Translations under genes and position numbers: made by a program | From: Cyanidioschyzon merolae | Taxonomy: Eukaryota | Assembly: GCA_000091205.1 (NCBI GenBank) | Contig: AP006500.2 | Reading direction: 5' to 3' (one strand) | Length of the DNA: 64,000 nt | Part shown: positions 1-64,000 of the stretch, one piece after another | Numbering within the stretch: position 1 is the first letter of the stretch | How the letters are laid out: each line of letters opens with the position of its first letter | Notes under the pieces: generated by a model | What the model was told of the DNA's origin: nothing | Database searches by the model: none | The model's input: the letters and a program-made list of their open reading frames with translations, nothing else

Positions 1-3000
1 CCCCCCATTTCCCCCCATATCCTTCGACTCCTACAAGTCGCGATGCTGATTCTTGTCGTTGATTCTTTTAATGTCCCGCAGTCTCGTTGGCGTTGCTTTC
101 TCGATGTTTTTCTTTTCTGGGTTTATTTTTTGTTAGTTGTTAGCGCATTCTGGCAATCCAGTTACTTTGGAGCTGTATTCGATAGGCAACAGTGGTCACT
201 TGGAATCAACGCTTACCTTTGTTTGTACGCGACCCTAAATTTCGTAGCGGGCCCGTAAACAAAGCTCTAGCTTACTTGCGCCTTTGCCGTTACTACCCAC
301 AAAGTATTTATTTTGTGCAACTCCAACCTGTCTCAGTTGCCTCACGATAATTATGCTTGATTCTGTTTTCTTACGCCTTTTGTATCTCTTGTTCTCTTTT
401 CTTGGGCGTTTTTGTTTACGATTGGTTATCTAGCCTTTCTTGTACTCCCGTTCGGTGACATGTCCATGTGCTGATTTTCATCGAGGCTCTACGTATCCTT
501 ACCCATGGGCTACGGCTCGTCACTAATTTTTTATCGATTAGGGTGCTGTGGAGCGATTGGTTTCGGTCTGTGTCTTTTTTCTTTTCTTTTAATGTCATTG
601 CCTGGTGTGAGCCCTGTTTTAATTCCGGGGCTGCAATGCCAAAGACAGCATTTGGCTTGTACGTTTTGGATTATCTGTTGGCTTGCACCCAGCACGCTTT
701 GGGGCCCGCCTGGGGAGCCCAGGCTCCTCCGAGCACCCCCATGCTTTACGGTTTTGATGACTTTTTTTCCTATGACAATGCGTTATCTGGAACTGGCGAT
801 CTCTTTGTTCGGTGCTTCAGTACACTTTTGTCTTTGCTCGTTTTTGCGCCCAAAATTTTTTTGCAGCACTAAATATATGCATTTTTCTGTTGCGGATCAT
901 ATCAAGCATGTCGTACGTTCCGCGGCGTATATTCAGTATAGAACGTCTTCTCATATTCATCATGGACTCCAACGCATTGCGCTCTCTTTAATGTTTCTGC
1001 GCAAGAGTGTACGATTGCGGTGCTCTACGGAACGATACTGCAGTCTTGTGCACTACTTTATGTTCCGTAGACTGCTATTGGAAATTCACGTATGTCGCAC
1101 TAGTGCAGGTATTGCATCGACTGCGATCGACTCACCGATAATCCATATTGCTTGTGTTCCGCTTTCCACATAATCTCCATCGTAGGCCTCTGGAATCTGC
1201 AAGGGGGACAAACTGTACCACCAGGTATCTTTTGCCTTTCGGGCTTCAGATGCCAATCTCTGGAATAGATATCGAATGCTTCGTGGGCTCCTACTCTATT
1301 TGAGACTGGATATACTCGTTAACATACTGTGTCACCCTTTTCATGGGCAAGATAACGCACACTACCATACCGCTTAGGAAAATGCGTGGCAGCAAATATG
1401 GGCGCCCAAATTCACAAATGAACATTCAGTACAGGCGTATACTTTCATTCGCTTGTCATGAAAGCCTTCATCACCATCGTTGGATCTGCCTCCCTGGCCG
1501 CCGCTTCTCGAGAATCCGGAATCCTCGCTCCGATTCCGGTATCCTCTTCCTGGGATACCTCGATATCTGCTGTCGAACTGGATCATCACCAGAACCTCCT
1601 TTACATCGCCAGACTGCAAGCTGTTATCCAAGTTTTTGTGTTTGTGCTCGATGGCAGGCTGCTATCGCTGCACAAGATGCCTGGTCATGCATTTTCTAGT
1701 GGCGTACCCCTATCGATCCAAAATCACGATTCCAACCATCATTATGCAGACAGACAAGCTCTTTCGACCACTTTCAATATGCCAAGTCTATTGACTATGA
1801 CAAGCTACTGCGTTAGCGATCCATTCGCCACATCTGCAAGCACCTACTTCGTGGCCGCCACGAATGAAGCGTAAATTTGCTGTTCCGCCCGTCCACGGCT
1901 GGTACTATCTTTCGGCTATCATCATGACACCCGCGGTATCCTTTCTGCCTAGGGTTGCATCTAAGTTCCGTCGCACCGGTGCTCGCAAGCGTGCCAGAGC
2001 CCAACGCACGCCATCCCTTGCGACGCATACTACCCGAAGAAATCAACTCTTGCACCGTCTACAACGAAGAGCCCCGATCACGCCGGCTATTCTTGCCTTC
2101 CGTCTACACTCAAAGCGATCCTGGTCGGCACTGCAGGGTCTCGCTAGTTCAGGTCAGCATCCAGGTTGGCGTCGCTTTATAAGATCATGTCTGCGAAAAG
2201 CACCTCAATCCTTTACACTATTAGTCGATGGCCCCCGCTAAGATATAGCTGCGATGTCCATCACATGACGAAGACTTCGGCAACTATGGAAATCGTGAAG
2301 CTTGAGATCTTTTTTATTCGTTACATCTTATTGTGCATCTCGGTTTTTTTCTTAACCGAAGGACAAGTGTCCATTCATCAGCAGTAGATTCAATCATAGG
2401 GTATCTCGCAACGAACTTGCACATAATCGATAGGTACGGTTACAGAATGAGAGCTCCTAGGTTGCCTTCAATTCTGCTCGCCGTGCTGCGGTAACTCTCA
2501 CTTTGGCTAGATTCGCCCCCTGGATCTCGCTGTGCGCTCTATCTTGCCTGTACGCTTTAGCACGCTTGCGACATGTCCATGGTCTTACAGCGTACTTGCG
2601 CCCTCTGCTTGGAGTCATTTTCTCGACAACAAGCCCAAATCGGGGACTTGATCCCAACAGTGCGCTACAGTCGATTTTGGACACTTTTTGTATAACAGAC
2701 AGCAGGCAAGAGTCTGAGAACTTCTGAGGCGACCCTTCCGCATTTGGAGCAGGCAACATGCGCTTTCGATGCTAGAGCTGTACGTGCGCTGTGAGGCTGG
2801 TAGCTCTGCGACTTTCTTACTCAGCGACGCTGCTGCAGATGAAATGGATTCAGTGATATATACGCTTACCCTAGGAATACCGTATTCTGGTGAAATGTTC
2901 AGTTGCACGGATAGAATTGCACTTGCTCTGGAACTACTATTCGTGGGCAGAATCCATGCTAGTACACCAATCCTACAATGCTTACATCCCTTTGCGTCGT

Positions 3001-3237
3001 CGCAGCAAAACTCACTAGTCGCTACCTGTGCACCGGGTTTCCAGGGCAACGAAGGCAAAGGTTTGCAACCCACCGACGTCGCCGTAAAAGCAATATTCAT
3101 AGGCACGCTCGTGCTCATAGGAAATCATTCCTCTACGTTCCGAGAGAGATTCCCAGTCCAGTCGTTCCATGTGTATCGCCTCTGAATCACGGCCCATGGG
3201 CAGGATTTCAGAGTGCTCTCCGCGCACATCTGTAGCC

Positions 3238-8914: not shown

Positions 8915-10174
8915 TTAGACAGGGGCCAAGATAGTCGACTTGAGGCTTCGCCGCCGCAACGCCTGGTCGATCAGATCAAGACTCAGTTCGTAAAGCTGAT
9001 CTGCCTTGTCGATTTCGTATGTTGGTTCAATAACCTGCGGTTTCGTCTTCTATCCCCCATCCGTTTATTTGCCACGCCACTGATAATACGAGCCCGAGTC
9101 CGAGAACTGTCCCTGGGTCGCCACTTCGGCTACGCGGCGGCCGGCCTCATCATTCGGAACGTATTGCCGAGTGATGTACTTCTGAAGAATCGGGAAGAAT
9201 ACGCAGCGGAACCAGCCACGCTTTTCGCGGAAGAGGTTGCTGTCGGCGACACATCCCGGAAAAATCGCCACAGAGGTCACCCCGCCGCGGCCGTATCGAT
9301 CACTGAGCGCCTTCGTTGTTAACACCTTCGCGGCTTTGGCGTCTTTGTAGGCTTTTGTGGGCTCAAACGGACTATTCTCTTCCATGCCAGTCGTCTACGG
9401 ACCGAGCCCTGCGGCTAGACCAGACAAATCACCAAGACGAGCCTGCGGGGGGATCTTTCCCGGCAACGAATTCGGCGAGTGTGTCTGAGTTGTCAGAAAC
9501 ACAATGCGCCCGCGCGATATTTTCAGCTTCGGCAACAGCTCCCGACATAGAAGCAAATGGCTCAGATGGCATACCTGCATGGTTTCCTCGATGCCGTCCA
9601 CCGTGAAACGCCGTTTCTTGTCCGGCGGATGCCAGAGTGCGGCATTGCAGATCAGGGCATCCATGTGATCAACGCGCGCCACACTCTATTGCTCTCTCAC
9701 AAACTTTAGTACAGAGGCGAAATCAGCCAGATCACAATGCAGCACTGTATAGGCGTCCTTTGGAAGGTTCACGCTGTTTGCTGCGCGTTCCGCCCGGTCG
9801 ACGTCACGACATGCCATGACGATGTTCCAGTTGCCCTTGTTGATCAGAGCGCGAGCTGCATACAGACCGACTCCAGAGCACGCGCCAGTGACCACGGCGA
9901 TCTGCGACTGTTTCGGGCCCATACGAAGATGCAGCGCGTGGTGCCGGCGCGCTACAGGCGATCGCTGCACCACCAAAGGAAGCGGATGCTGGCAGTAATG
10001 ACGATGTCCAGCTGTGAAGCACCTGTCACGTGCGGTACACAGCGGAAACGGTGCTCGAGTTGCAGCGGGTGCGCCAACTATGTGTTTTTCCTGGCACAGC
10101 GAAAAACAAACCAATACGTCTTGCAGTTTTTTGGGATAGATTTTCTCTGGTGGTAAAGCTGCCAACTTCATCAC
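8915..10174 (-). pseudogene. POR: Light-dependent protochlorophyllide oxidoreductase (POR)-like SDR gene. The frame is continuous but interrupted by four in-frame stop codons.
   Basis: The three listed ORF fragments (9686..10174, 9395..9682, 9065..9385) and a further downstream stretch (8918..9049) are all in one frame. Recognisable POR blocks are [26 protein letters not shown] (Rossmann GxxxGxG), DALICNAAL, RIVFLTTQT..LGDLSGLAAGL, KAYKDAKAAKVLT (catalytic YxxxK), IFPGCVADSNLFRE and FFPILQKYIT, plus a C-terminal DKADQLYELSLDLIDQAL resembling the POR C-terminus. The in-frame stops are TAG at 9686-9688, TAG at 9395-9397, TAA at 9065-9067 and TAG at 9050-9052. The final TAA is at 8915-8917. Confidence 0.7.
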
Positions 10175-12514
10175 CGACTAAAGTCGTTCGCGTACGCATG
10201 CATATCCAGTGAGAAATCCTTTTTTCGTTGCTGCACGAGTGATCGCCCGTCAATTGCACAGAGTCCGACTTGTAACTCCCGTAGACTGTCTAGCGTTAAG
10301 CGCATCGAGCACAAGCGCTCAATGTCTTATACAGAGACTAGGCAAAACTCGCAGTTTGCCGAGCAATAATCTCGTCAGTACTGGCCGGTAAGTGTTCCGC
10401 AATGCTGAGTTCAAAGATTACAATGATTGTTGAGGCACGTCGCAGCAGCTCACCGACGAATAACGTAGAGGAGGTACAAGGGACTTACTTCCGGTGGTAC
10501 GTTATTTTGGAAGCGTCTGCACGTCAGTTGGACACGTCACGTCTAGGGCGGGTCTCTCGCCACTACTGTGCACGGCCGGCGACAAAATTTTTCTTTTCAA
10601 GGTCATTTGTTGTTGGTTGTGTCGCTTACGAGCTCGCTGTACTGGTTGGACTCTTGAACTAATCTTATAAAGTAGATCGGAAAACAATATGTGCTTTTGT
10701 CGGATGCCTCGATCGTCCCAGGCGAGATGCAATGCTCAAACGTCGTGGCAGATATAGATGCTATATGTATGCTATGCTTCTGCCGAGATCGCCGGATCCG
10801 AAGGACGTACAGGACACCATAGCTTGTACAACGATGATAGCATGGAAATGACTTGAACTGGCATCAGACCCAGCCCATGACGCCGGATAGATGCAACTTT
10901 CAGGTCAGGTCCTTATTCCAGTGTCCGTGCGGCATGAATAACAAGCATAGGGATTAAAATTATATCCGTGGCCGGGAACACTACCGTACCTAGTTCGGTT
11001 ACGATCCATACAACAGCCGAAAATCCTATTGAGGAGAGTGATGCATACCTAATCCGCATGAGCGTAGGATACTACGATGACTACGCTTTTGATAGAAGCA
11101 TCGCGGAGTTTCGAGCCAGGTCTCAACATCCCGTCGTATGTCAGGGCGGTACTGCAATGGGGAGTAGCGTCGGCACCAGCGACAGAGTCTATAGCATGAT
11201 ATCGTTCTACGTGAGTTTCCGATCTACGATACTTTACTTCCGCTGCAGCGCGATGCGAACACGCATGAGCCACGGCGGCGTCGGACACGTGTCCTTCATC
11301 GATCGGTGAGGCGTCTCGCGCGGTGGACGCATTGTGCGCAGTGAGCGCATCTGGGAGATCGGGAAGTCACGTGACATGATGCGCATGCCGCCGTTGAAGG
11401 AAAACGCGATTGGGCTCAGTCGCGTGTTGTTCTACCGGAGAAAGTTGGATCTCCATCGAGGTCGTAAACAAGTGTAGTTATCAGTTCATTAGGTTCTGGA
11501 AATTCGAGCAAGTCTAGTCAAGTGTTTATCGCAGTACATGACAGAAGGGTTCAAAGAGCGTCCTTTTTCGAAAAAAAAAACTAAAAAAGGAAAGCTATGA
11601 AAAAACAAGTCGACGATCCTGGAGGCCCAGGGTCGCAGGCTGCCAGAAAAAATAATAAACAACAGTGACAAGTCCGGAAGAAAATGAAGAGAAGAAGAAG
11701 GACCGAAGGGGGGCCCTTCGTTGAAAGCTGCAAGAAAGACAACTTTACCACGAGAAGGTGGTGAAAGCCTTCCTTCTTGGACATATCAGACATCCCTGTA
11801 GGGAAAAGTTGCGAGACGCTATCGAAAAACGTGTCGACTCGAACTCCATGACTACCGTAAAGGCGTCGTCAGGACTTATGCATTTGGTGAGGGAGATGTG
11901 TCGCGACGTGATGCGCATGGAAACGGTCGAGATTCCGGACGAGTTTCATTGATACGATCTTTATTCGTCACCTGATTTTTGGTACAGAGGAAGCGCGGAA
12001 GGAAAACGAGCTGGTGCATGCTCTCCACGAAAAACATCCCTTTTACGGGCTCGAGAGTACTCCATACAAGTGAGACTGCAGTAATTACATCTACGGAACG
12101 ATGAAGTACCTCACGAACCTGACGAACCATTGACAATGAACCTCGAACTTTTCATAATACGCGCCGTGTTTGGACGTTACCCGAGCGTCTCTCGCAAAGG
12201 GGATATGGGCGATGATCAATTGCATCACGAAAGATCGAAAGTATGAAGATATGGTCGACTTTGTTGACAAGAAGGCGTCGAAAGAGAGCACGAATGAAGC
12301 TACTGTAATCCGTGCGGTTGTACATGAGCACTGTTTAGTCTTGGGGCTGGCGAATCCAGCGGAAATGGCATCATATATAGAAAAAAGATGAAAAAAGATG
12401 TTATCACCTCATCTTGCTCTATTTCGTATTCCTGAATCGAGTACGCGAACGCAAGGCAGAGATGAAGCCTAGTGAGGAGAACATGAAGCGTGGGGGAGAC
12501 GGAAGGCGTCCCTA

Positions 12515-12823
12515 ATGCGTAAGCGCTTCAATGGCGCTCCGTTGTGCAACATCAAGTCATATTTTGTGAGCATCGACTTTAGAAACCTTCACGGCATCAT
12601 GAAGGAGATCAGTCCCGAGCTCGATGTTAGCAGGGAGGACTTCAGCGGCGAAAACTGGCAGACGTACTGGAAGAGTATCTTCGATTTCAAACGTCTGAAA
12701 GTCAGCAAACAAAAGGTATTCGTGGGGAGATCGAACAGATGGAATAACCTTGTGTATGCACTATCGGCGGTTGAAGAGAGATCATCAAGTTCCTCCCTCG
12801 GCTGCGCCCGTGACGAAGGATGA
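12515..12823 (+). pseudogene. N-terminal module of the TnpB/Fanzor-like protein (copy 1 fragment).
   Basis: [41 protein letters not shown] aligns with copy 2 [41 protein letters not shown] (42918..43127). Confidence 0.5.
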
Positions 12824-13568
12824 AGATGAGATGGAGGCGGATCCTGCAACGCAGAAAGTGCAGGATAACGAGTTCATCGTTGACGGGGCGAAGGATGAAA
12901 ATGAGAAGGGGGCGGATCCTGCTAAGCAGGAGGTGGAGGATAACGACCTTGTTGTTGACACGATGAAGCATGAAGATAACAAAGAGACGGGTCCTGCGAC
13001 GCAGGAGGTGGAGGATAACGACTTTATTGTTGACATAACGAAGGATGAGGATGAGAAGAAGGCGGGTCCTGTGATGCAGGAGGTGCAGGATGACGCCTTT
13101 ATGGTTGGCGCGGTGAAGCATGATGAAAACAACAAGGCGGATCCAGCGACCCAGAAAGTGCATGATAATGACTTTATCGTTGGCGCGGACCCCGGAAACA
13201 CAAATATCATCACCATCGCAGCACCGAAGCGTGCGGGCGATGGTGCTGATGGTAACTTACGTCAGAAAGACATGCACCTTTTGAGGTTCTCGAGAGCGAG
13301 ACACTATCGAGAATCGGGTATAATGAATGCGAGGAAGAAAACTGAAACATGGAAAGCAGGAATAAAGGATCACCCGGAAGCTTTGAGCGAGGCGACGAGC
13401 CGAGGAGCGGACTTTGAAGCTTTTCGGAAATTCGTGGAAGTTCGTGTTGCTCATTGGGATGCGCTGTGGGAGGCGTATACCAAGCCACAATGGGCTCGGT
13501 TGCGAATCAATCTATACGGTGGGAAGCAGCGGGCGTTCGCCAACTTTTTCAATCAGTTGAGCGCCTGA
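12750..13568 (+). pseudogene. TnpB/Fanzor-like RuvC module, copy 1 fragment: RuvC-I region plus a 5x 75-bp in-frame repeat expansion, then truncated by a frameshift.
   Basis: ..[67 protein letters not shown] is collinear with copy 2. A 1-nt loss near 13566 shifts the frame. In-frame TGA and TAA follow in the continuation (13454..13648 and beyond). Confidence 0.55.
12830..13195 (+). repeat. Tandem 75-bp coding repeat (about 5 units), present only in copy 1 of the element.
   Basis: A repeated peptide of about 25 aa, DPATQKVQDNEFIVDGAKDENEKGA, and variants. Copy 2 has a single unit ([21 protein letters not shown]). Confidence 0.8.
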
Positions 13569-13753
13569 AGGAGGATGATAGTCGAAGGCTGGTAGTGGCA
13601 TACGGAGCAGGGCGCTGGGTGCCCAAGAAAGGAACTACTCCAGCTTGAACGACGATGGTGTAAAAGGAGTGCGCAGTACGTTTCGTAACGATACCTGTAG
13701 ATGAGTTTCGAACGTCCTATATACACCATGAACTGGGGTGTACACTTCAGAGC

Positions 13754-14098
13754 GTGGAGATGGAAAAGTGCCAGCGGAGCCTTGAGGATGTAAAAAAGTA
13801 TGGACCGCTGACGGAGGAGCAAATGGAAAGGAGGGTGGAAGTGCGAGGGCTACTCGCATTGATTAGTATGATCAATGGCAAGAAACGTATGGAGTTCGTG
13901 AACCGAGACTTTAATGCCGCTATCAATATCAGGAGATGTGCGGTGCTGGAGAAAAGACCTCCAGAGTCGACAAGAGGGAACTTTGTTGGACAACCTCTCG
14001 AAGTGGAACTATATGAGAAAAAATTGGAAGCAGTCATGGGTGGCCGGTCGAGAAAGACGGGGAGGCGTCCGCACTCCAGTTGGAGACGTTTTGTCTAA
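13754..14098 (+). pseudogene. C-terminal fragment of the TnpB/Fanzor-like protein (copy 1) containing the RuvC-III motif.
   Basis: ..[34 protein letters not shown].. carries the hallmark TnpB/Cas12/Fanzor RuvC-III signature RDxNAAxNI. It aligns to copy 2 ..[34 protein letters not shown].. Confidence 0.6.
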
Positions 14099-14373
14099 GG
14101 CGCGTTCGCCGCCACTAATGTACACCGCTGGCGACGGCGGCGTTAGATGCGTGCCACGTGGCACTCGATACGCGCTCTGCAGGGGGTCTTCGGGATTCGA
14201 GATGCGAGCTCCATGACACGTTGCAGCGGATCATGCGTGACGTGCGCTCGCATCTTTCTGATGCCCGCGACGCCGTATGTGTGTTTTCCCGCCTTTATAA
14301 CACAAAGCACTGCTTATACTCGCGTTACTAAAAGTGAGTTTCCTTCTAGGCACCAGCGAAGACGTGGGAATCA

Positions 14374-24860: not shown

Positions 24861-27800
24861 CGTACGGGCGACTCAAAAAGGTTGTGCAACGTCACAAAAG
24901 GCTCGTAACGCACGGCGGCACCGGCCCGAGTCAGTGAATCCTATGCCTTCGATCAGAAACTAGGACAATGCACGTGCTCTCACAGCAGCTCGACCAGAAA
25001 TACCCACAAGTTCTGTCCCAGCAAGAGCAGTCTCTGCCGACGGCTATAGACGCAGCCGCTGAGCGACTCGCACCGCAGCTGGGGCCGGATTACGCTGCGG
25101 CCGTTCGAGGGCCTCGGCTACGGAACGAGGTCCGTCGGCGAAAACTTTCATCGGTTTGCGAGTATCGTAGAACGCTTCGTATATCAGCGAGAGCGCATGA
25201 TGTGGTAGTGTAAAGCCTGCTGCATACAGTATCTGAGCATTCGTGTTGATGATATGTCCAGTGCACAGTGTCCGCGAGGGTGTGGTCCAACGTTATGCTC
25301 GCTGCACAGGAATGCATACGAGACATACGCAGCAGCAGATTCCAGCCATGAATCGCCATTACTATTGACCGTTGGCCAGGAAAATCGTTCCATTTGTAAA
25401 CGCGGAGGTCGGGATTTGATGAACTGCTGAACGGTGTTGTACCAATGGCTTGTTCCAGGCGAGTATCCAATACCCACTCTCCGGGGCGAAGACTTCCCCA
25501 TCGAAAGCCCTCTGTAATTCAGCGCAATATGCGCATCAAATACTGAACGATTCCCTGAAATATTCGCATAAAGACAGAACGGCCGAACGCCCCAGGTGCA
25601 CGAAGTATTTCCCAGTATTGCTGAGACGGTCAAGTTTCGGTGCAAAAAGTGCTTGCGTGCATATTGTCGCTGCTGGAATGACACTGTGTCACGCCCTGTT
25701 GTGTTCGATTGCCTCGCCTTCTAGAGTTCAGTCACCGCACGGTGCACCATCTCGTGCATTCTGTTCTTCTCCATTCTCTTCTTCTCTACAGGTTTTACCG
25801 TGTGCTCGTGGACGTGCTGCGTGTATGTCGTCCTAGACGCATCGACGGGAATCCTGCACGCTCGATTCTTCCAGGAACTGAACGCGCTCTTTTAAGGAGC
25901 ACGAGTGCAGCCTTTGCGTGCCACAGCAAAACCAGCGCAGTAGGCTAACAGCGAACGACACGACAAATTAGCTATTTCCCTTTCAGAGTTGTTGAAGAAC
26001 TTGGCGAATGTACGCCTCCTGTCCAGACACAGCCAGAATCGATGACGATCCTAGTCCGATCTCGCGCATACCAGTTGAAAATCGTCCACAAGTCATATTT
26101 GGGCGCGCATATGCTATCCAAAAGCGCGGAATCCCTTCCAGCGGTCTCACTCTTCCGGGGCGCTGAGACGGGGCTGCAACGGGTACGTGGTTCGTCTCAT
26201 AAAGCACTCTCCACTGACCCGCATATGGTTTATGAGGTTGGGTTGGGGCGCTTCGGCACCGAAGCTGAAGACTCTTTTCATATCCGTCTCTTCAAGGTAT
26301 CCAGCGAAGCGCGTCTGCATATCTCTGATCCTATGTGCAGGTCGTTTTGTACCTTCTGTCCTGAGCATCAGTTCTCGTTCGAGGTTTAGGCCGGAAAATT
26401 CCAAGGGAAATTCCAGTCGCTGGCAGGGTGCATCAGGAGCTCCGACAATCGCTTTTTTGACGCGACACCGTTGGGCGAGAGAAGCTACGCGATACCAATT
26501 AGAGTCCTGAATCTCATTTTCTGGAAAATTCTCCCCGTAGATAAATTATAAAGTGCCTGGCAATCGTTTCAGACCAAGGTTTCCGCTCCGACATTTTTCC
26601 TTCCTCTCACTACTTCTCGTATTTTCGGAGAGATGTTTCCCTACTTTTTCCCGATATTTCTCCTCGCTCTCTTTTCCCGTGTCCTTTTACTTGGCGGGTT
26701 GCGAGGACGTGTTTGCCGTAGAAATCATGCGTTTCCTCCGTGGCATTCAGGCATACTGTTTCGACGGTGGCATGAAGCTCGGCTTTACGCTTGAGTATTT
26801 CTCTCCTATGCCGCAAATGCCGTATCGTCAACTTTGCTGCCTCGAGCCCGCCCGTGGACCCAATCGCGCCATTTCGCTGGCCCCCACGAACGAAAAGGCG
26901 AGCACCAGAGCGGCTCAGTACTGGTGATTGTTGAGAACGAGTTGTAGCAGAATCATTCATGGAAGATCTTCGGTGCCCTGAACACGAACGATGCGTCCAT
27001 GGATCCGTTTGCGCATAAATGCCGCTTGACATTAGAGAAGACGCGTTCGACTGAATTGATCCCTGAGGAAAACCTGACCCGAAGAGCAGCTGAATGCAAA
27101 TATCAGCAGCGTATACCTCGACCGATTTTGAGTGTTGAAATGCAACGTTGGCTAGGAGCAGGATATGAACATGTGGGAAGCAGAAGCGAAGATGAGCTTT
27201 CAAGAACGACGGGATTTTGAGCGATTCCGGCCGATTAGCTATTTACGGGCGCCCGCAGCACGGAATCGCCGCTACGGCTGACACTGTCGCCATGCTTTCT
27301 CGTCTCTTCTTTACGAACAGCGGTTTACTGGTATTTGAGTTCCCATGTACAGGTCTAGCAACGCTTCCAAATGAAGTTTCATCGAGTCCAGTGGACACCT
27401 GTCCGTACTGCACTGAGCGTTCGCATTCCATTACGGAATCGGCCAGGAGCTGCTCAACGCGCGGCGGTCTCTCATCCGAGCGCACTTCTATGTTTACCAT
27501 CCATGTCTCAGCGTCAGCATATCTGTCAATGGTACGGAAATTGCACATCTTGTAGCTTCTCTGCGAGTGCTTCTTAAAGAACGAATGGCCAGGAGCGGAT
27601 CGAAAAGCAGAGAGTCATTTAGACATTGTTTGATAAAGTCTGTTTCGAATGCACAAAATTCAAGATGAGGGCGAGGAGAAGAGTTAATCATCCACCCGCT
27701 CACCGTAGAAAGACTGTCTCAGACGAGTAAACCCGTTTTTCGCAGCCTAGCAGTGACAGCGTCAACTCTTTTCGAAAACCTTTTGGAATGCGGAGTACAC

Positions 27801-35199: not shown

Positions 35200-36794
35200 A
35201 GCAGTTTACGCAGGTGGCTTGTTACCAAGGTCGCTCCGATCATGCGCTTGCGTGTCGCCAAGCGACGCTAGCAGAAAAGTGCGAATATAGAAACCACATG
35301 ACGTGCGGCCTTCCATTCGGATGAAAACGCTGTCCGAGAGACCGCATCCCAGATATAAGTTGTACCGCAAGGGCTACAAAAAGTAAGTCTAAAGCAACGC
35401 CTGAATCCTGAGACAATAGCATTCGACTCGATCGTTCGCGAAATGGGTATCGCGGACCCATCTGAGCGCATCTACCCAGGACGTGCGGATCCGCACCTGA
35501 GGCCGTCGATGGATAGGATCCACCGTTTAAAGCGCGCTGTTCGCCACGGAAAACCCTACAGCCACCAAGCCAGTTGCCGTGAAGCTCCTCAATGCATCGG
35601 CCAATGCTTCTTCCGACACGGCATTTCCATTGCATGCATATTCAAATCGTACCTGGTACGCGTCTATGTGATCAGCGTATACGTAGCAGCCAGCTGAGAC
35701 GCAGTCGACACCCGCTCCGTTTCCTAAGCTTTCCGAGTAAATATTAAAACTCGTACTGGAAAGAGCCACTGCGCAGACGCAGCCGTCAAGGCGAAGCTCG
35801 CTGATGGAAGCGTCTGTGGAGACATGCGGCATGCCAAGTGCACACGAGTCCCGTTAACCTTTATCAGAAGTGCGTGGGCTTCGTTCCTCAGCGAAGCTGG
35901 TTCAGATACAGGTATTTGAAATAAGATCAGCGCTGAACACTCTGCAGATTGCCAAACCCTAAAAACGCTGTGACACCAAGTACGAAAGAGGCCGCGAACG
36001 TGCCCCACTCGAAAGCACGTCGGGCAAGGCGAAGCTGCGTCTTCCTCGGTTAGAGCAAACGGCGCTTCGGCTCGACACTCGTTCGGCCATAGCGCTGTCC
36101 ACCACGAGCAGCAGAGGCAGCTGCGGTGCAAGGACCGTCGTAGCTGCCACGGAAGTGCTGCAACAGCGCTCACCGAAGCAGCGCACGACTCCGAGTCCGT
36201 CGCGGGGTGGTTCATGAAAACCTGCCCTCGGACTAGGTCTGTCTAGCTACGTACCAACGCCTGTCATGATAGTACGACACCAACTCACATCATCGAAACG
36301 ACAACTCGGGGCAGTATACGCAACACTTGTGGCGCAGTAGAGGCTCGTGTAAAACGGTTTTTAATGCACCTGCTGTTGCCAGCTGTGTCGCCAGCAACTA
36401 AGCTTGCGCTCTGCCGGCTCGCGGGGGTATTTTTGATTACCGGAACATTGACAAGGACACGGAATCCCGCTTTACGTGAGGAAGAGCGGCAATCAAGGAT
36501 CATGCTGCGTATCTTTCTATCAACGGAATGTTTGCAATGACGCGGAATACCTGGTCGCGCGATGGACACCGGTCTCCGGGAAAACCATCCAAAACGCCAC
36601 ACCATACCGGCAAGTTCCAGTGGGCAATACCCTCGCTTCCCGTTAGTCATTCTGGTCACTTGCGACCGATCCACCGCAGGCGCTTTCTCGTCGACGCAAT
36701 GAACAATGCTGCTGCTGCCTTGCACGCGAAGCCGGGCGACTCGAATTGCACACTATCGCTGCAGGCAACGCATCCGTTGGAGCTCCGCATGCAG

Positions 36795-37450
36795 ATACCA
36801 GTATGAAGAGGCGCGAAAAGTCATTCCAGGAACCGGCCTTGAATACCCGAACATCCACCATACCAGAATGAAGAGGCACGAAAAGTCAGAATGGTAGTGT
36901 GCCCTATGTACCCGAACATCCACCACACCAGATTGAAGAGGCACGAAAAGTCAGAATGGTTATGTGCACTACGCACCCGAACATCCACCATACCAGTATG
37001 AAGAGGCACGAAAAGTCATTCCAGGAACCGGCCTTGAATACCCGAACATCCACCATACCAGAATGAAGAGGCACGAAAAGTCAGAATGGTTATGTGCACT
37101 ACGCACCCGAACATCCACCATACCAGTATGAAGAGGCACGAAAAGTCATTCCAGGAACCGGCCTTGAATACCCGAACATCCACCGATACCAGAGTGAAGA
37201 GGCACGAAAAGTCAGAATGGTTATGTGCACTACGCACCCGAACATCCACCATACCAGTATGAAGAGGCACGAAAAGTCATTCCAGGAACCGGCCTTGAAT
37301 ACCCGAACATCCACCGATACCAGAGTGAAGAGGCACGAAAAGTCAGAATGGTTATGTGCACTACGCACCCGAACATCCACCATACCAGTATGAAGAGGCA
37401 CGAAAAGTCATTCCAGGAACCGGCCTTGAATACCCGAACATCCACCGATA
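36795..37450. repeat. Tandem array of about 5 copies of a 131-bp unit made of two related subunits of about 65 bp.
   Basis: ORF-track peptides starting MHYAPEHPPYQYEEARKVIPGTGLEYPNIH recur at 37094, 37225 and 37356, giving a 131-nt period. Both subunits share cccgaacatccacc(g)ataccag.(a/g)tgaagaggcacgaaaagtca. Confidence 0.85.
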
Positions 37451-37542
37451 CCGAAATGCAGCGCGACGCGTCCAGGAAAAAATCGCGGCGATATCGAGGC
37501 ATCCGTTGCGTACAAGCAGGTGGAGGTCGCTCTCCAGGAACG

Positions 37543-41527: not shown

Positions 41528-42917
41528 TCACCGCCACCAACACCAACACCAGCTGAAGCAACGATACCAACAACAGTTCTATAGTCTGCACGAGAGCGAC
41601 TCTACCTGTCTGTAGCCTCCTTGTGTTGAAGGGTACGCGTTAGCGCCCGTTGGGCCGCCACCGCATCGGCAACGCGCCCCAAGCGTGAGGGCTTGTCCAG
41701 CGAATTACATGCCCACAACACCGCGGCTGCAGGCGATGCGCATCGAATCTTGCTGCCGATGCGCTGTCATATTTTGTTCGATAACGAAATTCGTTTATAT
41801 CGACGCTGGATCCTAGATTGCGGGATGGGTATTCGTAATCGCAAAAGCATCCATTATGATGCAGTTACCCCCAAGTTCCATTATTCGTACTTCATTTCGG
41901 ATATGCTGGTCGGTTTGCACGTTCAGTCGTGCACCTAACCTGCCCTGATCGTCCGCGATAGCGCCTATACCGCTGGAGCAGATCTTTCATAGAGGCAGAG
42001 CGGCGTTGCGATTCCACTGAGGGTAATGGCTCGAGGCGCGGCTCACCGTACACGGAATCGGAGTAGCGAATCATTCTGGGCGCCTGCGAGCCGCGCAGAG
42101 AGACGTACTTTCTGCGACAGCGCGAAGCGATATACTAAGAGTCCACCGCTACCGAGGCGACACCAAGACGCAGCCTAACTGCCCCTAATCCCAGAACAAA
42201 CTGCGTTACGGACGAGTTGCTCAGATTTGGCCACAACATAGGGAAACGGAGCGATAGCCTGGCATGCTCGTCCGACTCGTGGGGCCTTCCGTCTAAAAGG
42301 TAAACTTTCGACAATACCGAAATCTTTTCCCCTTTTTGACGTTTATCGTAGATGGTAAAAGGAATTTTTTATCGTTGCAAGTGAGTGGTTAGTCTCTGTC
42401 CTTTGTTCTACATAGTGCGGTCGATACGCGTACCTCCATATCTAGCAGGCATGAGATACGACGTGCATCTTGTCGCTACAGGGAATAGCGACCCTCACCG
42501 TTATCGTATTGATGGAATATACAAGTTGCATTTGCGTAACAGCCGTACCAAAATGCAAGGTTTCCATTCAGTTGTGTTTCAACCCTCAAGTCAGTGTACT
42601 CATGTGATTTTTTTCCGGTTTATATCAGAAGCGTTCAAAGTGCGTTCTTTTTCAGAAAGAAATAAGAAAGGAAAGTTGTCGAAATGGAAGTGGAGGATCC
42701 CGAAGGCCCTGGGTCACCACCTGGCAGAAAAAACGAAAAAAAGTGCCGCGCGAAGAGGAACAGGAGAATACCAAGGAGCGAACATGGACGCCCCACGTCA
42801 CAAGCTGTCTGAATCGAGAACTCGAACGCAAGGCGGAGATGGAGCTGGGTGTCGAAAAAATGAAGAGTCCGTGGAACGGAAGACTGCGCTTCTCGGGAAG
42901 CGATTCGACGCCGTTCC

Positions 42918-43127
42918 GTGATATGCAACATCAAGTGGCACTCTGCGACCATCGACTCCAGTGTCCGTCATGGCATTATGAGGGAGACCAGCTCCGAGTT
43001 CGATGTAAGCAACAAGGAATTCACAGGTGAAAACCGGGAGACGTACTGGAAGTATATCGTAGACTTGAAACGTCTCGAAACGGGCAAGAAAAGGCATCCA
43101 CGGAGACGATCGAAACCGATGGTGTAG
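42918..43127 (+). CDS. N-terminal module of the TnpB/Fanzor-like protein (copy 2). It is in a different frame from the RuvC ORF and may be joined to it by splicing or frameshifting.
   Basis: Homologous to copy 1 12515..12823. It ends with TAG at 43125-43127, immediately 5' of the RuvC-frame ATG at 43130. Confidence 0.45.
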
Positions 43128-43129
43128 CC

Positions 43130-44119
43130 ATGTGTGTACGCTATCGGCGGTCGAAGGCAGATCGTCCTGGTCCGCCTTCGATATCGCCCTCGGGGAAGCA
43201 TGAAGAAAAGGAAATGGCAGATCCTAGGATGCAGGAGGTGCAGGAGAGCGACTTTGTTGTTGGCGCGGACCCTGGGGCTACGAACATCGTAACCATCGCA
43301 GTACCCAAGCGTGCGGAAAATGGCATTCGCGGCAACTTGCATCAGAAAGATATGCGTATTTTGAGGTTCTCGAGAGCGAGATACTATCGAGAATCGGGAA
43401 TCATGAATACGAGGAAGAAAATCGAGACATGGAATGCAGGAATGAATGAGCACCAGGAAGCTATGAGCCAGGTGACGAGCCGAGGAGCGGACTGTCGAGC
43501 TTTTCGGGAGTTCATGGAAGTTCGTGTTGCCCATTGGGATGCGCTGTGGGAGGAGTATACCAAGCCCCGGTGGGCTCGTTTGCGTATGAATCTATACGGT
43601 GGGAAGCAGCGGGCCTTTACGAATTCTTTCAATCAGTTGAGTGCCCTGAAGGAGGATGAGAGTCAGGGGCTCGTAGTAGCGTACGGGGCAGGGCGATGGA
43701 AGACCCAAAAAGGGACTACGCCAGCTCCAACGACGAGAACGTGTAAGGAGTGCGCACGGCGTTTTGTTACAATACCGATAGATGAGTTCCGAACGTCCTA
43801 TACACACCATGAGCTGGGGTGTACGCTTCAGAGAGTGGAGATGGAAAAGCGCCAAAGGAGTCCTGAGGAAATCGCAAAGTACGGACCGCTGACGGAGGAG
43901 CAAATGGAAAGGAGAGCGAAAGTTCGAGGATTGCTTGCATTAGTAAGTACAACCAACGATGGCAAGAAACGTATGGAGTTTGTGAACCGAGAATTCAATG
44001 CCGCTATGAATATCAGGAGATGTGCGCTGTTGGAGAATAGACCTCCGGAGTCGACAAGAGGGAACTTGTTGGACAACCTCTCAAAGTGGAACTATATGAG
44101 AAAAAATTGGAAGAAGTAG
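43130..44119 (+). CDS. TnpB/Fanzor-like RuvC nuclease module (329 aa).
   Basis: RuvC-I-like [15 protein letters not shown]; the zinc-finger remnant [11 protein letters not shown] followed by [13 protein letters not shown]; the RuvC-III signature [15 protein letters not shown]. The canonical RuvC-II (vvEdLn) position reads [10 protein letters not shown]. Confidence 0.65.
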
Positions 44120-44326
44120 TTGGTGGCCCGTCGAGAAAGACGGGGAGGCGTCCGCACACCAGTTGGCGACGCTATATCTAACACGCGTTCGCCGCCACTA
44201 CTGTACACCGCTGGCGACTGCTTGCGACCTTTGAAAAGCTTTCGGTCGACACGAAACACCCCTAAAAGGCGATACCGTACATCCCTAAGCAACTCGATAA
44301 AAGATTTGCAACCTCCCAGCGCACGC

Positions 44327-45493: not shown

Positions 45494-48400
45494 GATGACG
45501 CCGTCAACGCAACAGGGATGCATCGTACTTGAGGGTCCCCGTATACAGCACTGAGCGAGGGCGAGCTACAGATCCGAACAATGCATTCACGCGAAGTCCA
45601 GTTTGGACCGCACAGCATGCAATATATCATCGTTCATGTACGCGTTATGCCGCTGCATCCGATTCTTTTGGTGACGGGCAGATCGAGCGCGTGAACGTCT
45701 GCATCTGCCCGATAAAATGGACGCTGTTGCGCGCAAAACGCATGCTGTTTCGGGATCATATGTCAAGGAGGCATAAGACCGGCTGAACGCGAGGGCACCT
45801 CTGACAGCGAGCGCAAAGCGCAGAGCACCGCCCGGTACTCGACATCAGTGGAGAGCAGGGCTTGTTTTGGGCGGCAACGAGTCCTCGTTGCCGATAGGCT
45901 GCTGCATTTCAGCAGCGCACTGTCATGCAAAGATAACGAGATAGAGAGTGCGTGCATCACGACACGAGCACGTGTTGAAGTTTGCCTCTAGAGCGATCGA
46001 GGAAATAGCAGGAGTGTCGTACATCGCTCGAGTAATGGCGAAAAATGAATGGTTTGTACTCGGAGCAGTGAGGTTTGAAACAGTCGCGTCAGCGAACGCT
46101 TTTTGTTTTGTTTTCTTTTTGTTTTTCTCACGAGTATAAAACAAATAAAAAATATGTTTTAGATTGGAGCAAGGCTGCGAAAAGGCGTGAGTCTAGTCTC
46201 AGTAGAGTACGGAATAGCGTTATCCTCGCCCAAGTAACGTATTCTTGGGTCAGCAGGTGGATGAATCACCCTTCTCGCGACACTTGTCCTGAACGTCATG
46301 TACCCAAAAGCAGAACTTGTGCAACACTGTCCACGCGACTGTGCGTGTTCGTAAATCCATTCCAGTCCATACGCTGTTCAGGAAATACGATCAAAAAAGC
46401 AGCAGAATGCAAAACTTTCGTACCACGGGTACGAACGTTGATGAAGCGACACAGATGGACACAGGGAAAAGAGCACCCCGCTACGGTAGCCCGTCGAAAG
46501 CGGAACAACACACGATCCATGTCGTCCTCGAACGCGAACACAGCGTCCAGGAGCGATGCGTATTTGTCTCTTTGGAAGCGACTTGAATGAAATGGAGGAC
46601 CTGTATGTAGGTATGCGAAACTTGACAACTCACTGATCGTATCCAAGGGAATCGTGAGCAATTCGACGACATTCACTGTAGCTGCGATGCAAACACGTGG
46701 TAGTCTACAAATCGCCACACGAGCAACTTCGATCAACGCCTCATTCTTTTTCAAGGCAAGCTTCATGGCTTCTCTTCGCCGGATTCTCAAGCCCTGCTCT
46801 TAGACAACGCCGCTTTGCATCGCTCACAAGCTGACAAAAAATACGCTCTTCTTCATGCCAGCCTGTGTTTCGTGAATAAATTCAGACGAAGACTTTTTTT
46901 CAGTGTTGTGCAACGCCATCTCTACGCAAACGGAGCAGCAGATGATTGATTCACATCCGCGACACCGTTCTTTGAAGAATCCTTCGACCATACATGGTTG
47001 TCTGCAATATATACCAGTTCCGTTTTGTTCTGCTGGTCATCTTGACGCGCACCGGAGCGAGAGAAAAGTCCGACTTCGGTCAATGGGCGTGCTGGAGAAA
47101 GAGACGATGACGAAAAGGTGCCTGAGCAATGGTATATGTACATTTAGAAAAGGTGCGATTCGGTGCCACCGTCCACCCGGTCCGTCTGAGACCGCCAAAA
47201 GTAATAATATGGAGTAGAGTGTCCCCAGCGATGCCATCCCGCCAAGCGGGGGCGTTGGCGAAAATGGATCCCGTCTGTGCGAGTACCCATCAAGTATTCG
47301 ATCTACATTGCCATGCGCATTGACGAGGCTCGTTCAAGGTTTCTCGTTCACAGGAAGGAAATGAATACAAGTTGATAAGGACTTGTGCGCGATGCTCATC
47401 GATGCGTTCAGGACCACGTGCTCAACTCATGGGCATGGACGAACGCTGAAACTGGTAGAGAAGAAGCGAACAAAAGAGACCCGAATGCACGACGCGGGGG
47501 TTTGTACGGTACGATGACGGAACGTCAGATGGCAAGGCAATCCATCGCAAGCGGCTCGCGATACGGTCTGATCCCAACAGCCGCCCTGCGTCCGCGTACT
47601 TTCTATACTGAAACTTGAACGCTTCGATTCATACTCGGGAAAGTGTCGTGAATCTGGAGCAGTCAGCGAGTTTTGCGTCATGCGACCTTTGGGGTGAATC
47701 ACGTCGTGGTCATTGTCGAGAACGTACTGAAATACTGAACACTTGCATAGAAAGAAATGTCCGTCTCCAGGAGCGCGCAAGCCGCGGGTCGTCCCCGACA
47801 TCAACGCACTGGAATGGTGCGGTCCGCGATCCAGCACTCTTGATGCACCGTGTATACAAACCAGAAACAATTTTCTTGATGTTTATCAACACACGCAACA
47901 CACGCACCAGCAACCTTGCGGCTCTGTGCACCAGACAATAGACTTGCAGCTTAACAGACCTGCTTCCATGAGTTTATCGAATACGTGCGTCGCCAGCAAC
48001 CCTGCGGCTGCGTGCACCAGACAAGAAACTCCCGACCAAACAGCCCGTCTTCCATAAGCATATAGAATACACGCTTCACGAGCCTCGAAAAGCGTACCGT
48101 TGCGACTCCTTCGCGTGGAAACGCTCGAGCACACACCCGCCGCCTCTGTGGCTTCAGGATACGCGCCGCGCGCTGCCGTTGCCCAGCGCAGCAGCTGCTG
48201 CAACGGAAACGTCAGCGTCTCTCCTCGCCGTTGCCCAGCGCTGCAGCTGCAACGGGTACCGGTTCCACGAGTTTCGTGAATTGACGCTCCAGCCGTCGGG
48301 GTGTAAGGGACACCTATCGACGGCACGCATCGTAAGGCGTTGTGTGCTTCTCCTCAGGTGCTCCGAGAACGCACTCACAAAAGGCGAGCGTCACACTGAG

Positions 48401-60619: not shown

Positions 60620-61800
60620 CGCCCGGAGCGTTCCATGCGGTGGGAAACGTCCCCGCCGCCTCCTCCTCCTCCTCGTGCACACAACCGACACCGCCAAAGC
60701 ACAAAGCGTGAAACGTGATCACTGGTACGGAATAGCGTCAACACTGGGTGCTTGTTCATGGATGGGCTATGGACGGTGGTCCCGGGCAGTGCCGTGCGGT
60801 GGGAAACGTCCCCGCCGCCTCCTCCTCCTCCTCGTGCACACAACCGACACCGCCAAAGCACAAAGCGTGAAACGTGATCACTGGTACGGAATAGCGTCAA
60901 CACTGGGTGCTTGTTCATGGATGGGTTATGGACGGTGGTCCCGGGCAGTGCCGTGCGGTGGGAAACGTCCCCGCCGCCTCCTCCTCATCCTCCTCCTCCT
61001 CCTCGTGCACACAACCGACACCGCCAAAGCACAAAGCGTGAAACGTGATCACTGGTACGGAATAGCGTCAACACTGGGTGCTTGTTCATGGATGGGCTAT
61101 GGACGGTGGTCCCGGGCAGTGCCGTGCGGTGGGAAACGTCCCCGCCGCCTCCTCCTCATCCTCCTCCTCCTCCTCCTCGTGCACACAACCGACACCGCCA
61201 AAGCACAAAGCGTGAAACGTGATCACTGCTACGGAACAGCGTCAACACTGGGTGCTTGTTCATGGATGGGTTATGGACGGTGGTCCCGGGCAGTGCCGTG
61301 CGGTGGGAAACGTCCCCGCCGCCTCCTCCTCATCCTCCTCCTCCTCCTCGTGCACACAACCGACACCGCCAAAGCACAAAGCGTGAAACGTGATCACTGG
61401 TACGGAACAGCGTCAACACTGGGTGCTTGTTCATGGATGGGTTATGGACGGTGGTCCCGGGCAGTGCCGTGCGGTGGGAAACGTCCCCGCCGCCTCCTCC
61501 TCATCCTTCTCCTCCGCCTCGTGCACGCAACCGACACCGCCAAAGCACAAAGCGTGAAACATGATCACTGGTACGGAACAGCGTCAACACTGGGTGCTTG
61601 TTCATGGATGGGTTATGGACGGTGGTCCCGGGCAGTGCCGTGCGGTGGGAAACGTCCCCGCCGCCTCCTCCTCATCCTCCTCCTCCGCCTCGTGCACACA
61701 ACCGACACCGCCAAAGCACAAAGCGTGAAACGTGATCACTGGTACGGAATAGCGTCAACACTGGGTGCTTGTTCATGGATGGGTTATGGACGGTGGTCCG
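60620..61800. repeat. Satellite-like tandem array, about 7 units of about 158-174 bp, each containing a variable (CCT)n tract.
   Basis: The unit ..gtgccgtgcggtgggaaacgtccccgccgcc(tcc)n tcgtgcacacaaccgacaccgccaaagcacaaagcgtgaaacgtgatcactggtacggaatagcgtcaacactgggtgcttgttcatggatgggttatggacggtggtcccgggca.. recurs at about 60634, 60792, 60951, 61119, 61293, 61465 and 61637. Confidence 0.9.
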
Positions 61801-64000
61801 GGTGCAAACCTGCTTGGCGGGTACCAACTTGGTCGTGGTTTACGCGTGTGACAAGCGTACCCGAAGCGCGTATCGTCATGAATGGATTTCGTGCTTGGTA
61901 GGCTGCGGACTGGATGCAAAGCTGCTCGATGCAGTGTAGCAGCGGAGTCGATGTTGGATAGCAGCAGTGTTTGGTTGACGTGCATCACTGGGGTTGCGTG
62001 AGTGAGGCATCAGGAATCACGTTATAGAAAAAGATGTATGTCAACGATGAGCACTCAGGGCATGATCGCGGGGGAGTCGAGGTCGCATCATCCGGCATCC
62101 GCAACGATCGAAAATGATGTTGCTTCCCTGCTGTTGGCGGCTATGTGTTCGGTACCAGGTATTGTGTTCGGGTGCAATACGCAACGTCCATCGCTCAACA
62201 AACATGAAGGATAAGTAGCATGGCGGAGGAGTTTCAGAGGAGCGCGGATCCCTGGACCGGTTGCGCTGCTCGCGCTCGGTAAATGTTTCCGATCCTGTTC
62301 TCGGCGAATAGGATCGATATTCAGAGAGCAGTAGTACAGGATTCGGGACACTAGGTCGACTTTTTGAAACGGCTGGTTCGGCGAGTTGCCGCTGCAATTC
62401 ATCAAGTCACTGAAATCAAGATGAATTGTGATGTCGGCGAACACCGGTGCCGCAAAGTAATCCATTTCGCGATCCAATGCATACGTACATGCCTCCACTA
62501 GTCCCATTTGCTTACACGCAGCACGCTGGAATCATGCGCTCTTCAACTTGTCGATCTTTCTGTTCTAAAAAAACTCCCGGGTGTAGTGATTCGCGTGGCT
62601 GGGTCCCCGGGCTCAGAAACTCAACGTCGTGCCTTGACGACTTTATATACAACTCCGGCCGAAATATCACTGAAACGCTCAAGGCAAATACGGATCGAGT
62701 TCATTCGAAAGAGGAATTCCTCTATCTTTGAGTCCATCGCCAAAACCGCATTCGATAGCAGGATGAAACCTCGTACGAGATACGCTCCAAACACGCCCGT
62801 CTCTTTTTTTCGGAATGAAGAAAAAGGGCCCTGGACTCGAACTCGACTCGTCGCAGCGATCACTTGTAACGGAGATTGCGTCACAGTATTGCACGACGGG
62901 ATCGTAGACGGGGTGGAATTTCTCGACTTGCTCTCTAGCCGAGATTTTCCTTCGGGTTCAAGTTCCATTATGGACGACAATGCGTTCCATGAATCCGGTA
63001 TTAACTGGAACAAAGTGAGTTTTCGTTGGTGCAGAAGAAAGCGATTGCGGTGAGGGCATTGCTCAGAAAAAGCGTGAGATCGTCGAGTACGGCACTGGGC
63101 GGATACCCGGCACAGAGGGTTACCGAGGCGAGCCTTCTCTACCCGTCCAGGGCAGGTACTGGGCTATGAAACAGGCGCATGTCGCACTGCAGGGCGGCCC
63201 ACGGAGCATGCATAATGGTGAATGCACGGGAGTACCTGACGAGTATCCTTTGGAAGCGCTGGGCGGGCCAAACCGGTGCTATATACAAAGAAAATGAAAA
63301 ACGCTCGAAGCGAAGATCATAACCTGCGACTGGGCCTGCATTGCGTCGGTAAAGAAAATGGAAAACGCTCGAAGCGAAGATCATAACCTGCGACTGGGCC
63401 TGCATTGCGTCGATAACAGCGTAGAGCACCGAAATCGGGATTTGAACGCTGTCCCCAACATCCTTCGAATACTGACAACAGAGCTGCAAGAACAGAAGAC
63501 ATCGCCGAATGTACATCCAGAGATAAGAAAGAGTGCGGATAAACAAAACAGTCACCGACAAATCCAGTCATGGCCGGTGTTGATAACATCAGAAACAACC
63601 CACAGCTCTCATGTGAGCGCCCCAGTACGAGCACCCGTTCCAGTTTGATTTGATATGCATATAGACGAACGTGGGAAAACGAACCCCAAACTCTGGATGA
63701 TTTCAAGACATACCCCAGAATATGAGTCCGAGACCAGGATGCATCCGGCAGGGCAGCGGCTGGTTTCGCGTCGCTGGTCGGGTACAGGACGAACACCACG
63801 AGGCCCCAATTAGTTTGCAATCCGAGCGAATCCACTCCGTCGGCACCGCTATCCGAATATCCCCGTCTTTCATCAACAACAGAGCAAGTGGCATGTTGGT
63901 GCTCAAACTCTAGGCTAGCGCTACATTACCGGTGAGATGGTGTTGGAGCATCTCGACCAGGCGCGAGATGACCAGTTTTGGTGCCTGCGAGCGCACCACT

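Follow-up and report, generated by a model that had tools for sequence, protein, structure and literature searches.

A stretch of 64,000 nucleotides from Cyanidioschyzon merolae (contig AP006500.2 of assembly GCA_000091205.1; the whole stretch is referred to here as the window) contains, at 41779..44239 on the plus strand, a sequence that is best read, with a probability of roughly 95%, as a dead copy, with an internal deletion, of CMe-1A, a transposable element that carries a gene for Fanzor1, a eukaryotic RNA-guided nuclease. An initial annotation, made from the letters of the window alone, had placed a Fanzor/TnpB-like element here, built around a 329-aa open reading frame (ORF), and had considered it noteworthy for an algal genome. 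The ORF (43130..44119, plus strand) exists, and the motifs quoted from it are present in the quoted order. Profile comparison, predicted fold, and the match to CMe-1A also agree that the ORF derives from a TnpB-lineage (Fanzor) gene on a discrete, multi-copy mobile or formerly mobile element in an algal nuclear genome. The novelty does not stand: CMe-1A was reported as a Fanzor1 family of C. merolae by Bao & Jurka in 2013 (Mob DNA 2013;4:12; PMC3627910). Family, species, and assignment to Fanzor1 were thus already in print, and the find is a rediscovery. The host was identified from three further ORFs of the window, which are identical to annotated proteins of C. merolae strain 10D: UDP-sulfoquinovose synthase (SQD1, BAM82303.1; 33664..35199, plus strand), sulfoquinovosyltransferase (SQD2, BAM82305.1; 39974..41527, minus strand), and TOR kinase (BAM82307.1; 48580..56793, plus strand). 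The DNA is therefore nuclear and comes from this red alga.

According to Bao & Jurka (PMC3627910), CMe-1A is present in ∼150 genomic copies, each ∼80% identical to a consensus of roughly 3 kb; their supplementary files give 3169 bp for the consensus and 734 aa for the protein, CMe-1. Some copies are still coding. The element has no terminal inverted repeats, its target duplications were left undetermined and its class was stated to be unknown, and the 5′ 635 bp of the consensus are 95% identical to a separate repeat, TE-N2_CMe. It is the single Fanzor family listed for C. merolae in that study (PMC3627910); a further catalogue that includes Fanzors of rhodophytes followed in 2023 (PMC10530073). 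When the consensus was compared with the window (blastn), positions 1–1037 matched 41779–42807 with 78.5% identity and positions 1736–3168 matched 42808–44239 with 86.3% identity. In a global alignment, 41779..44239 and the consensus were 84% identical across 2450 aligned bases. Both ends of the consensus are present in this copy, and the unit is larger than the one initially delimited (42625..44215). At the protein level, residues 278–728 of CMe-1 matched the locus (tblastn), and CMe-1, whose sequence includes NRDFNAAINI and ...MEFVNRDFNAAINIRRC..., is colinear with the 329-aa ORF. The copy and CMe-1A share, besides the species, both termini, a nucleotide identity of 78–86%, and an ORF colinear with the 734-aa protein, and neither has inverted repeats or a recognizable target-site duplication. 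A divergence of this size fits the ∼80% identity that the authors of CMe-1A call typical. The copy differs from the consensus by the absence of positions 1038–1735, by six small frameshifting indels, and by a Glu in place of the Asp of RuvC-III. Judged from these sequence comparisons, it is a degenerate member of CMe-1A by descent, a pseudogene and no variant type. The ends of 41779..44239 were inspected for a target-site duplication and for inverted repeats; neither was found. That annotation was right in seeing no TnpA-like transposase: a Pfam scan of the ORF and its neighbors detected no transposase domain in the element or adjoining it.

The state of the copy was reconstructed by taking consensus positions 906–3110 as the ancestral coding sequence and listing all frame-breaking changes from the global alignment (Table 1). 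Apart from the 698-bp deletion, these are 1-nt deletions at consensus positions 956, 1015, 1783, 2016, and 2994 and a 2-nt insertion at 1849. The first two interrupt what is left of ancestral codons 1–44. The surviving coding remnants correspond to residues 1–44 and 278–734 of the 734-aa protein. The ORF at 42918..43127, regarded initially as a separate upstream module, uses a different frame from that of the 329-aa ORF; it belongs to the same ancestral coding sequence and was put out of frame by small indels. The ATG at 43130 corresponds to a Met within the ancestral protein (..VAMCVHY..). At the other end, the 1-nt deletion near 44066 shifts the final 38 ancestral codons into another frame, in which residues 697–734 of CMe-1 match 44065–44178 (tblastn). 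The 329-aa ORF, which is 54–94% identical to 230 database proteins (none with an informative name), is thus the longest still stop-free stretch of a dead Fanzor1 gene. Given the deletions and frameshifts, the Asp-to-Glu exchange, and the degenerate terminal hairpin described below, this copy (hereafter copy 2) is most plausibly a relic that no longer functions. The RuvC module, described as intact by the initial annotation, carries Glu at the RuvC-III Asp and belongs to a gene with a 698-bp deletion and six frameshifting indels.

Both profile and fold support the assignment of the family to Fanzor1. With the consensus protein as query, full-length relatives of 31–71% identity were recovered, and HMMER, run exhaustively against 1.84 billion representatives, then yielded 3752 relatives, 480 of them at E values of 1e-30 or better. 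A family profile and the alignment for an AlphaFold2 model were built from 88 of those relatives. Compared with the PDB, the 88-sequence profile matched exactly three distinct sequences, all of them Fanzor1: PpFz1 of Parasitella (9cf0; E 1.5e-24), SpuFz1 of Spizellomyces (8gkh; E 1.2e-18), and GtFz1 of Guillardia (9cer; E 1.1e-13). The protein modeled was not the truncated ORF of the window but a full-length relative of 752 aa, P0161, to which the ORF is 76% identical over the aligned part. The model reached a predicted local distance difference test score (pLDDT) of 83.5 and a predicted template modeling score (pTM) of 0.82; an earlier model based on a shallow alignment (pLDDT 62) had been discarded. 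In a Foldseek search with the P0161 model, the seven best PDB matches were all Fanzor1 (E 2e-16 to 6.5e-14, template modeling (TM) score up to 0.71), and Cas12 variants and ISDra2 TnpB appeared only at E values of 0.008 or weaker. As far as the model allows, the predicted fold of the CMe-1 family (WED, REC, RuvC, and NUC) is thus supported as that of Fanzor1.

Among characterized proteins, SpuFz1 (8GKH, 9CEU–9CEZ) resembles the family model in overall fold (Foldseek E 2e-16, TM score 0.57–0.71), in the rearranged RuvC active site, and in being eukaryotic, transposon-borne, and multi-copy; the Fanzor1 proteins of Parasitella (9CF0) and Guillardia (9CER) gave similar matches. In contrast, sequence identity between CMe-1 and SpuFz1 is only 12–16%, the zinc ribbon of SpuFz1 (...TSSVCPRC...GCTNPNC...) is missing from the CMe-1 clade, and CMe-1 has a variable 25-aa tandem repeat inserted before RuvC-I. 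With ISDra2 TnpB (8H1J), IS200/IS605 TnpB, and Cas12f, CMe-1 has the RuvC lineage in common. Its RuvC-III motif resembles the TnpB type, and relatives match PF07282 at levels from faint to significant; the fold match, which covers the RuvC core, is weak (E 0.02 over 274 columns). TnpB differs, moreover, in its size (∼400 aa vs 734 aa for CMe-1), its canonical RuvC-II Glu, its Y1 TnpA partner, and its bacterial host. Membership in TnpB (IS200/IS605, IS607) or Fanzor2, compact proteins of ∼400–500 aa with the canonical arrangement and, in autonomous copies, an adjacent TnpA (Y1 or serine recombinase), was considered and rejected in view of the 734-aa ancestor, the lack of a transposase domain, and the weak fold matches to TnpB and Cas12f (E 0.01–0.02).

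SpuFz1 coordinates two Mg2+ ions via D383, E541, and D606 (PMC10432273), and in Fanzors the catalytic site is rearranged, with the RuvC-II Glu replaced by Gly or Pro (PMC10530073). In the CMe-1 family, three acidic residues are invariant across the 88 relatives, the Asp of DPG, the Glu of DEFRTS, and the Asp of NRDxNAA. They align to positions 777, 935, and 1000 of the maltose-binding protein (MBP) fusion chain, which, at an offset of 394, are D383, E541, and D606 of SpuFz1. Equally invariant in the 88 sequences is the Gly of AYG (G623 in the numbering of P0161), with the Glu of DEFRTS following 33 residues downstream. From the order of the motifs, rather than from structural superposition, this Gly probably occupies the position of the canonical RuvC-II Glu. 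The family therefore combines an invariant Gly with a conserved downstream Glu, as is typical of the rearranged Fanzor active site, which in the numbering of the consensus protein comprises Asp431, the Gly replacing the canonical RuvC-II Glu, the alternative Glu603, and Asp672. Copy 2 lacks a complete catalytic triad: its RuvC-III motif reads NREF where the family has NRDF, the codon being GAA instead of the GAC of copy 1, a paralog in the window. Such replacements are not confined to copy 2; among 76 copies examined, the residue was Asp in 63, Asn in seven, Ala in three, Glu in two, and Gly in one. The stretch RTCKECA, interpreted initially as a remnant of a CxxC zinc finger, has a different background. 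Its first Cys is Tyr in the consensus and Tyr, Phe, or Ser in relatives; the stretch is located upstream of DEFRTS, outside the zinc-ribbon region; and in the 88-sequence profile alignment it is another stretch of 10 residues that lies opposite TSSVCPRC of SpuFz1. No zinc-ribbon cysteines were found in the CMe-1 consensus, in its clade, or in relatives of 31–43% identity, and the whole CMe-1 clade thus has no CxxC...CxxC zinc ribbon in the target-nucleic-acid-binding (TNB/NUC) domain. Matches to PF07282 do occur among more distant members of the wider family.

Taken by itself, the ORF might be mistaken for an intact, possibly active, compact nuclease of ∼330–400 aa resembling TnpB or Fanzor2, because it runs uninterrupted from RuvC-I to RuvC-III and keeps two of the three catalytic residues, the third being exchanged conservatively. 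That the locus encodes such an enzyme is nevertheless extremely unlikely. The ORF begins inside a 734-aa ancestor whose WED and REC parts are deleted or out of frame here, its C-terminal 38 codons are out of frame as well, the replaced Asp is otherwise invariant in 88 relatives, and the fold and profile matches of the family are to Fanzor1, not to TnpB, Cas12f, or Fanzor2. The initial analogy in size (∼400 aa) with compact TnpB and Fanzor2 arose because it was drawn from a deleted pseudogene; matches to TnpB and Cas12f reached E values of 0.01–0.02, compared with 2e-16 for Fanzor1.

The protein of the family evolved under purifying selection. Relative to the consensus, copies 2 and 1 had ratios of nonsynonymous to synonymous change (pN/pS) of 0.25 and 0.28, respectively, and across 44 nonredundant copies codon positions 1 and 2 were conserved at 0.91–0.95 compared with 0.80–0.84 for position 3. 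The low ratio of copy 2 could be taken to mean that the ORF is a fragment exapted by the host for a role other than that of a nuclease (e.g. nucleic-acid binding, or regulation between SQD2 and the downstream gene), the more so as 990 nt have remained free of stops within frameshifted surroundings and the site is intergenic and promoter-proximal, between SQD2 and the next gene and ∼250 bp from the start of SQD2. However, copy 1, which bears stops and frameshifts, has a similar pN/pS, and the selection signal therefore predates the insertion and stems from active lineages. The ORF was also not found as an exact sequence in the protein collection searched, so that it is seemingly unannotated rather than an annotated product, and among 80 related loci that were fetched, neither an orthologous locus of copy 2 nor an orthologous conserved ORF was found. 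Exaptation is thus very unlikely.

In analogy to characterized Fanzor1 elements, an omega RNA encoded by the 3′ tail is plausible but not demonstrated. In CMe-1A, ...CUGUACAC is followed by a hairpin. The terminal ∼50 nt fold as a hairpin in most copies, with a mean minimum free energy of −18.8 kcal/mol and a z of −1.9 (n = 44), compared with −11.5 and −0.26 for flanking controls (n = 44); in copy 2 the hairpin is degenerate (z −0.3). Among the 44 nonredundant copies, the pairing of the terminal hairpin is kept, but the sequences of its stem are of at least three unrelated types, several of them with G-U pairs. Where the homology ends at the 3′ side varies among copies, at ∼3137–3152 or at 3169 of the consensus. 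For the 3′ tail as a whole, three potential stems (S1–S3) were defined by hand, and 83% of the cells across the 44 copies were paired. RNAalifold, run on MAFFT alignments of the tail, returned almost no consensus structure. Additional constraint at synonymous sites of the 3′ end of the ORF was sought, and none was found; the tails of a second family with 42% identity (L081, L082) contained no RNA alignable with that of CMe-1A.

Several observations weigh against the interpretation of 41779..44239 as a dead Fanzor1 element with a 3′ guide RNA. Covariation in the 3′ tail did not exceed that of shuffled controls (eight double-change pairs vs 4.8 ± 1.6, with eight being reached in 28 of 500 shuffles), conservation of the tail does not exceed that of synonymous sites, and Rfam contained no match for it. 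An exchange of Asp for Glu is conservative, and loss of catalysis from it is putative. The evidence that some copies are intact comes from Bao & Jurka and from proteins of metagenomes, P0161 among them. Finally, the 329-aa ORF had no Pfam match at E values up to 1, and sequence searches of the PDB, both with the consensus protein alone and with a 10-sequence profile, did not retrieve any solved Fanzor; it is the fold and the deeper, 88-sequence profile that provide the link to Fanzor1. The failed searches are what would be expected if the resemblance of the motifs were a coincidence and the ORF had no RuvC fold. The probability of this is negligible: the deeper profile and the fold search match Fanzor1 structures specifically and with the catalytic residues aligned, and P0369, a distant member of the family, passes the Pfam threshold for Cas12f1-like_TNB (E 9.8e-9). 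A dead CMe-1A copy remains the preferred reading, and its parts are listed in Table 1 together with the related features of the window.

Table 1. Parts of copy 2 and related CMe-1A sequences in the window (positions are those of the window).
Feature	Position	Strand	Basis
Whole element; internally deleted CMe-1A copy with both ends	41779..44239	+	blastn and global alignment to the consensus
5′ module (consensus 1–635), TE-N2_CMe-like	41779..42403	+	Consensus alignments; PMC3627910
Leader between 5′ module and ancestral start codon (consensus 636–905)	42404..42683	+	Mapping by global alignment
Remnant of ancestral codons 1–44 (basic N-terminus), ATG at 42684	42684..42807	+	Indel list, three-frame translation
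Junction of the 698-bp internal deletion (consensus 1038–1735, ∼residues 45–277 of 734)	42807..42808	+	Consensus alignments
Remnant of ancestral codons ∼278–384, out of frame by three small indels	42808..43129	+	Indels at consensus 1783 (−1), 1849 (+2), and 2016 (−1)
329-aa ORF, RuvC-I to RuvC-III, with frameshifted tail	43130..44119	+	ORF list, frames, tblastn
Single unit of the 75-nt (25-aa) repeat	43189..43263	+	Comparison with other copies
RuvC-I catalytic Asp codon (GADPG)	43268..43270	+	Invariant in 88 members; aligned to SpuFz1 D383
Gly of AYG, probable position of the canonical TnpB RuvC-II Glu	43685..43687	+	Invariant in 88; equivalence from motif order
Alternative catalytic Glu codon (IDEFRTS)	43784..43786	+	Invariant; aligned to SpuFz1 E541
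GAA (Glu) at the position of the RuvC-III catalytic Asp	43991..43993	+	Asp invariant in the family, aligned to SpuFz1 D606
Final 38 ancestral codons plus stop, in a frame other than that of the ORF	44066..44181	+	Deletion at consensus 2994; tblastn
3′ tail, candidate omega RNA scaffold (putative function by analogy with Fanzor1)	44109..44239	+	Potential stems, degenerate terminal hairpin
Copy 1 (paralog)	10673..14139	+	5′ module ∼10673–11356 and core 11357–14139 (consensus 671–3151)
Solitary 3′ tail, 92 nt (consensus 3073–3164)	10509..10600	+	81.5% identity

CMe-1A behaves as a multi-copy transposable element: the window contains two copies, a solitary tail, and a relic of a second family, and further relatives are present in metagenomes, where 395 were found in contigs from close relatives of Cyanidioschyzon. 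The second homologous locus postulated by the initial annotation is the core of copy 1 (∼11357..14139). Copies 1 and 2 are 72–93% identical at the nucleotide level, and the homology extends to ∼102 bp beyond the stop of the 329-aa ORF. Copy 1 has five units of the 75-nt repeat (12809–13183), frameshifts, and two in-frame stops, and its RuvC-III Asp is kept.

The repeat itself, a tandem array of 75 nt (25 aa, acidic/basic) directly before RuvC-I, varies between one and six units among the copies in the window and in 80 related loci (L001–L080); in the P0161 model, the corresponding region (residues 388–469) is disordered, with pLDDT below 50. In the same set of sequences, the Fanzor core, from ∼640 of the consensus onward, is always joined at one point to a repeated 5′ module, of which at least four kinds occur; the TE-N2_CMe-like module of copy 2 is one, and copy 1 carries a different one. 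A short GC-rich palindrome, GCGCTCAGTGAGCGC or GCGCGGTCGATACGCGC, is located at the junction between module and core. The solitary tail lies 75–100 bp upstream of the 5′ module of copy 1, and a similar arrangement of tail and subsequent copy occurs in L045, L049, L050, and L057. The solitary tail could be what is left of an older copy, or it could be a guide-RNA locus that stands alone. Upstream of copy 1, the host-gene region (window 9000–11400) and the corresponding upstream sequences in L045 and L057 are 83–85% identical, which suggests an old insertion shared with a diverged relative; the downstream flanks do not match. For P0006, P0008, P0015, and other relatives whose sequence includes the N-terminal MGKRFN..CNIKSHFVTID region, PF26935.1 is given as a precomputed Pfam accession.

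A second Fanzor1 lineage has left a decayed, internally deleted relic at 25619–26542 on the minus strand. By tblastn it matched residues 524–623 of P0173 (42% identity, E 3e-17) and residues 68–222 and 522–662 of P0174. Directly upstream of the Fanzor gene of P0174, a relative with 42% identity, L082 contains a fragment with a DDE_3 transposase domain (PF13358, Tc1/mariner-type; 871–1284). Four tandem repeats elsewhere in the window, at 36730–37475 (unit ∼65 nt), 47907–48078 (∼86 nt), 60659–61804 (∼171 nt), and 63287–63414 (∼64 nt), are unrelated to the Fanzor element; the one at 36730–37475 and the one at 60659–61804 sit within long ORFs.

With regard to function, the ancestral element encoded one 734-aa Fanzor1 with a basic N-terminus, REC and WED domains, a split RuvC, and no zinc ribbon. 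If it acted like the biochemically characterized Fanzor1 enzymes, this protein, when intact, would bind an omega RNA made from the element's 3′ end and would cut guide-matching DNA beside a short adjacent motif, and such cutting would, by the same analogy, help the element to persist or spread. Copy 2 cannot make the intact protein, because it has lost 698 bp of coding sequence, six indels disrupt the frame, RuvC-III carries Glu, and the hairpin is degenerate. For the family, as opposed to this copy, a further reading was weighed: the CMe-1 clade may consist of Fanzor1 proteins without a zinc finger that are still active in Cyanidioschyzon populations, with the element moving by a hairpin-dependent single-strand route (IS200/IS605- or Helitron-like) and being mobilized in trans. 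Room for it is left by the absence of inverted repeats and target duplications, the conservation of the structure but not the sequence of the hairpin, the interchangeable 5′ modules, and the solitary tails; on balance it is considered unlikely. It concerns the family only, the copy in the window being dead.

For C. merolae, the analysis means that the unannotated stretch between SQD2 and the next gene is to be annotated as a degenerate CMe-1A copy, which is neither a host gene nor a compact nuclease. If a genome editor tolerant to heat or acid is sought, it is the family, and not the copy in the window, that may deserve attention, because its protein has been under selection (pN/pS ∼0.25), environmental relatives contain long, apparently intact ORFs (such as that of the 752-aa P0161), and the zinc ribbon is missing.

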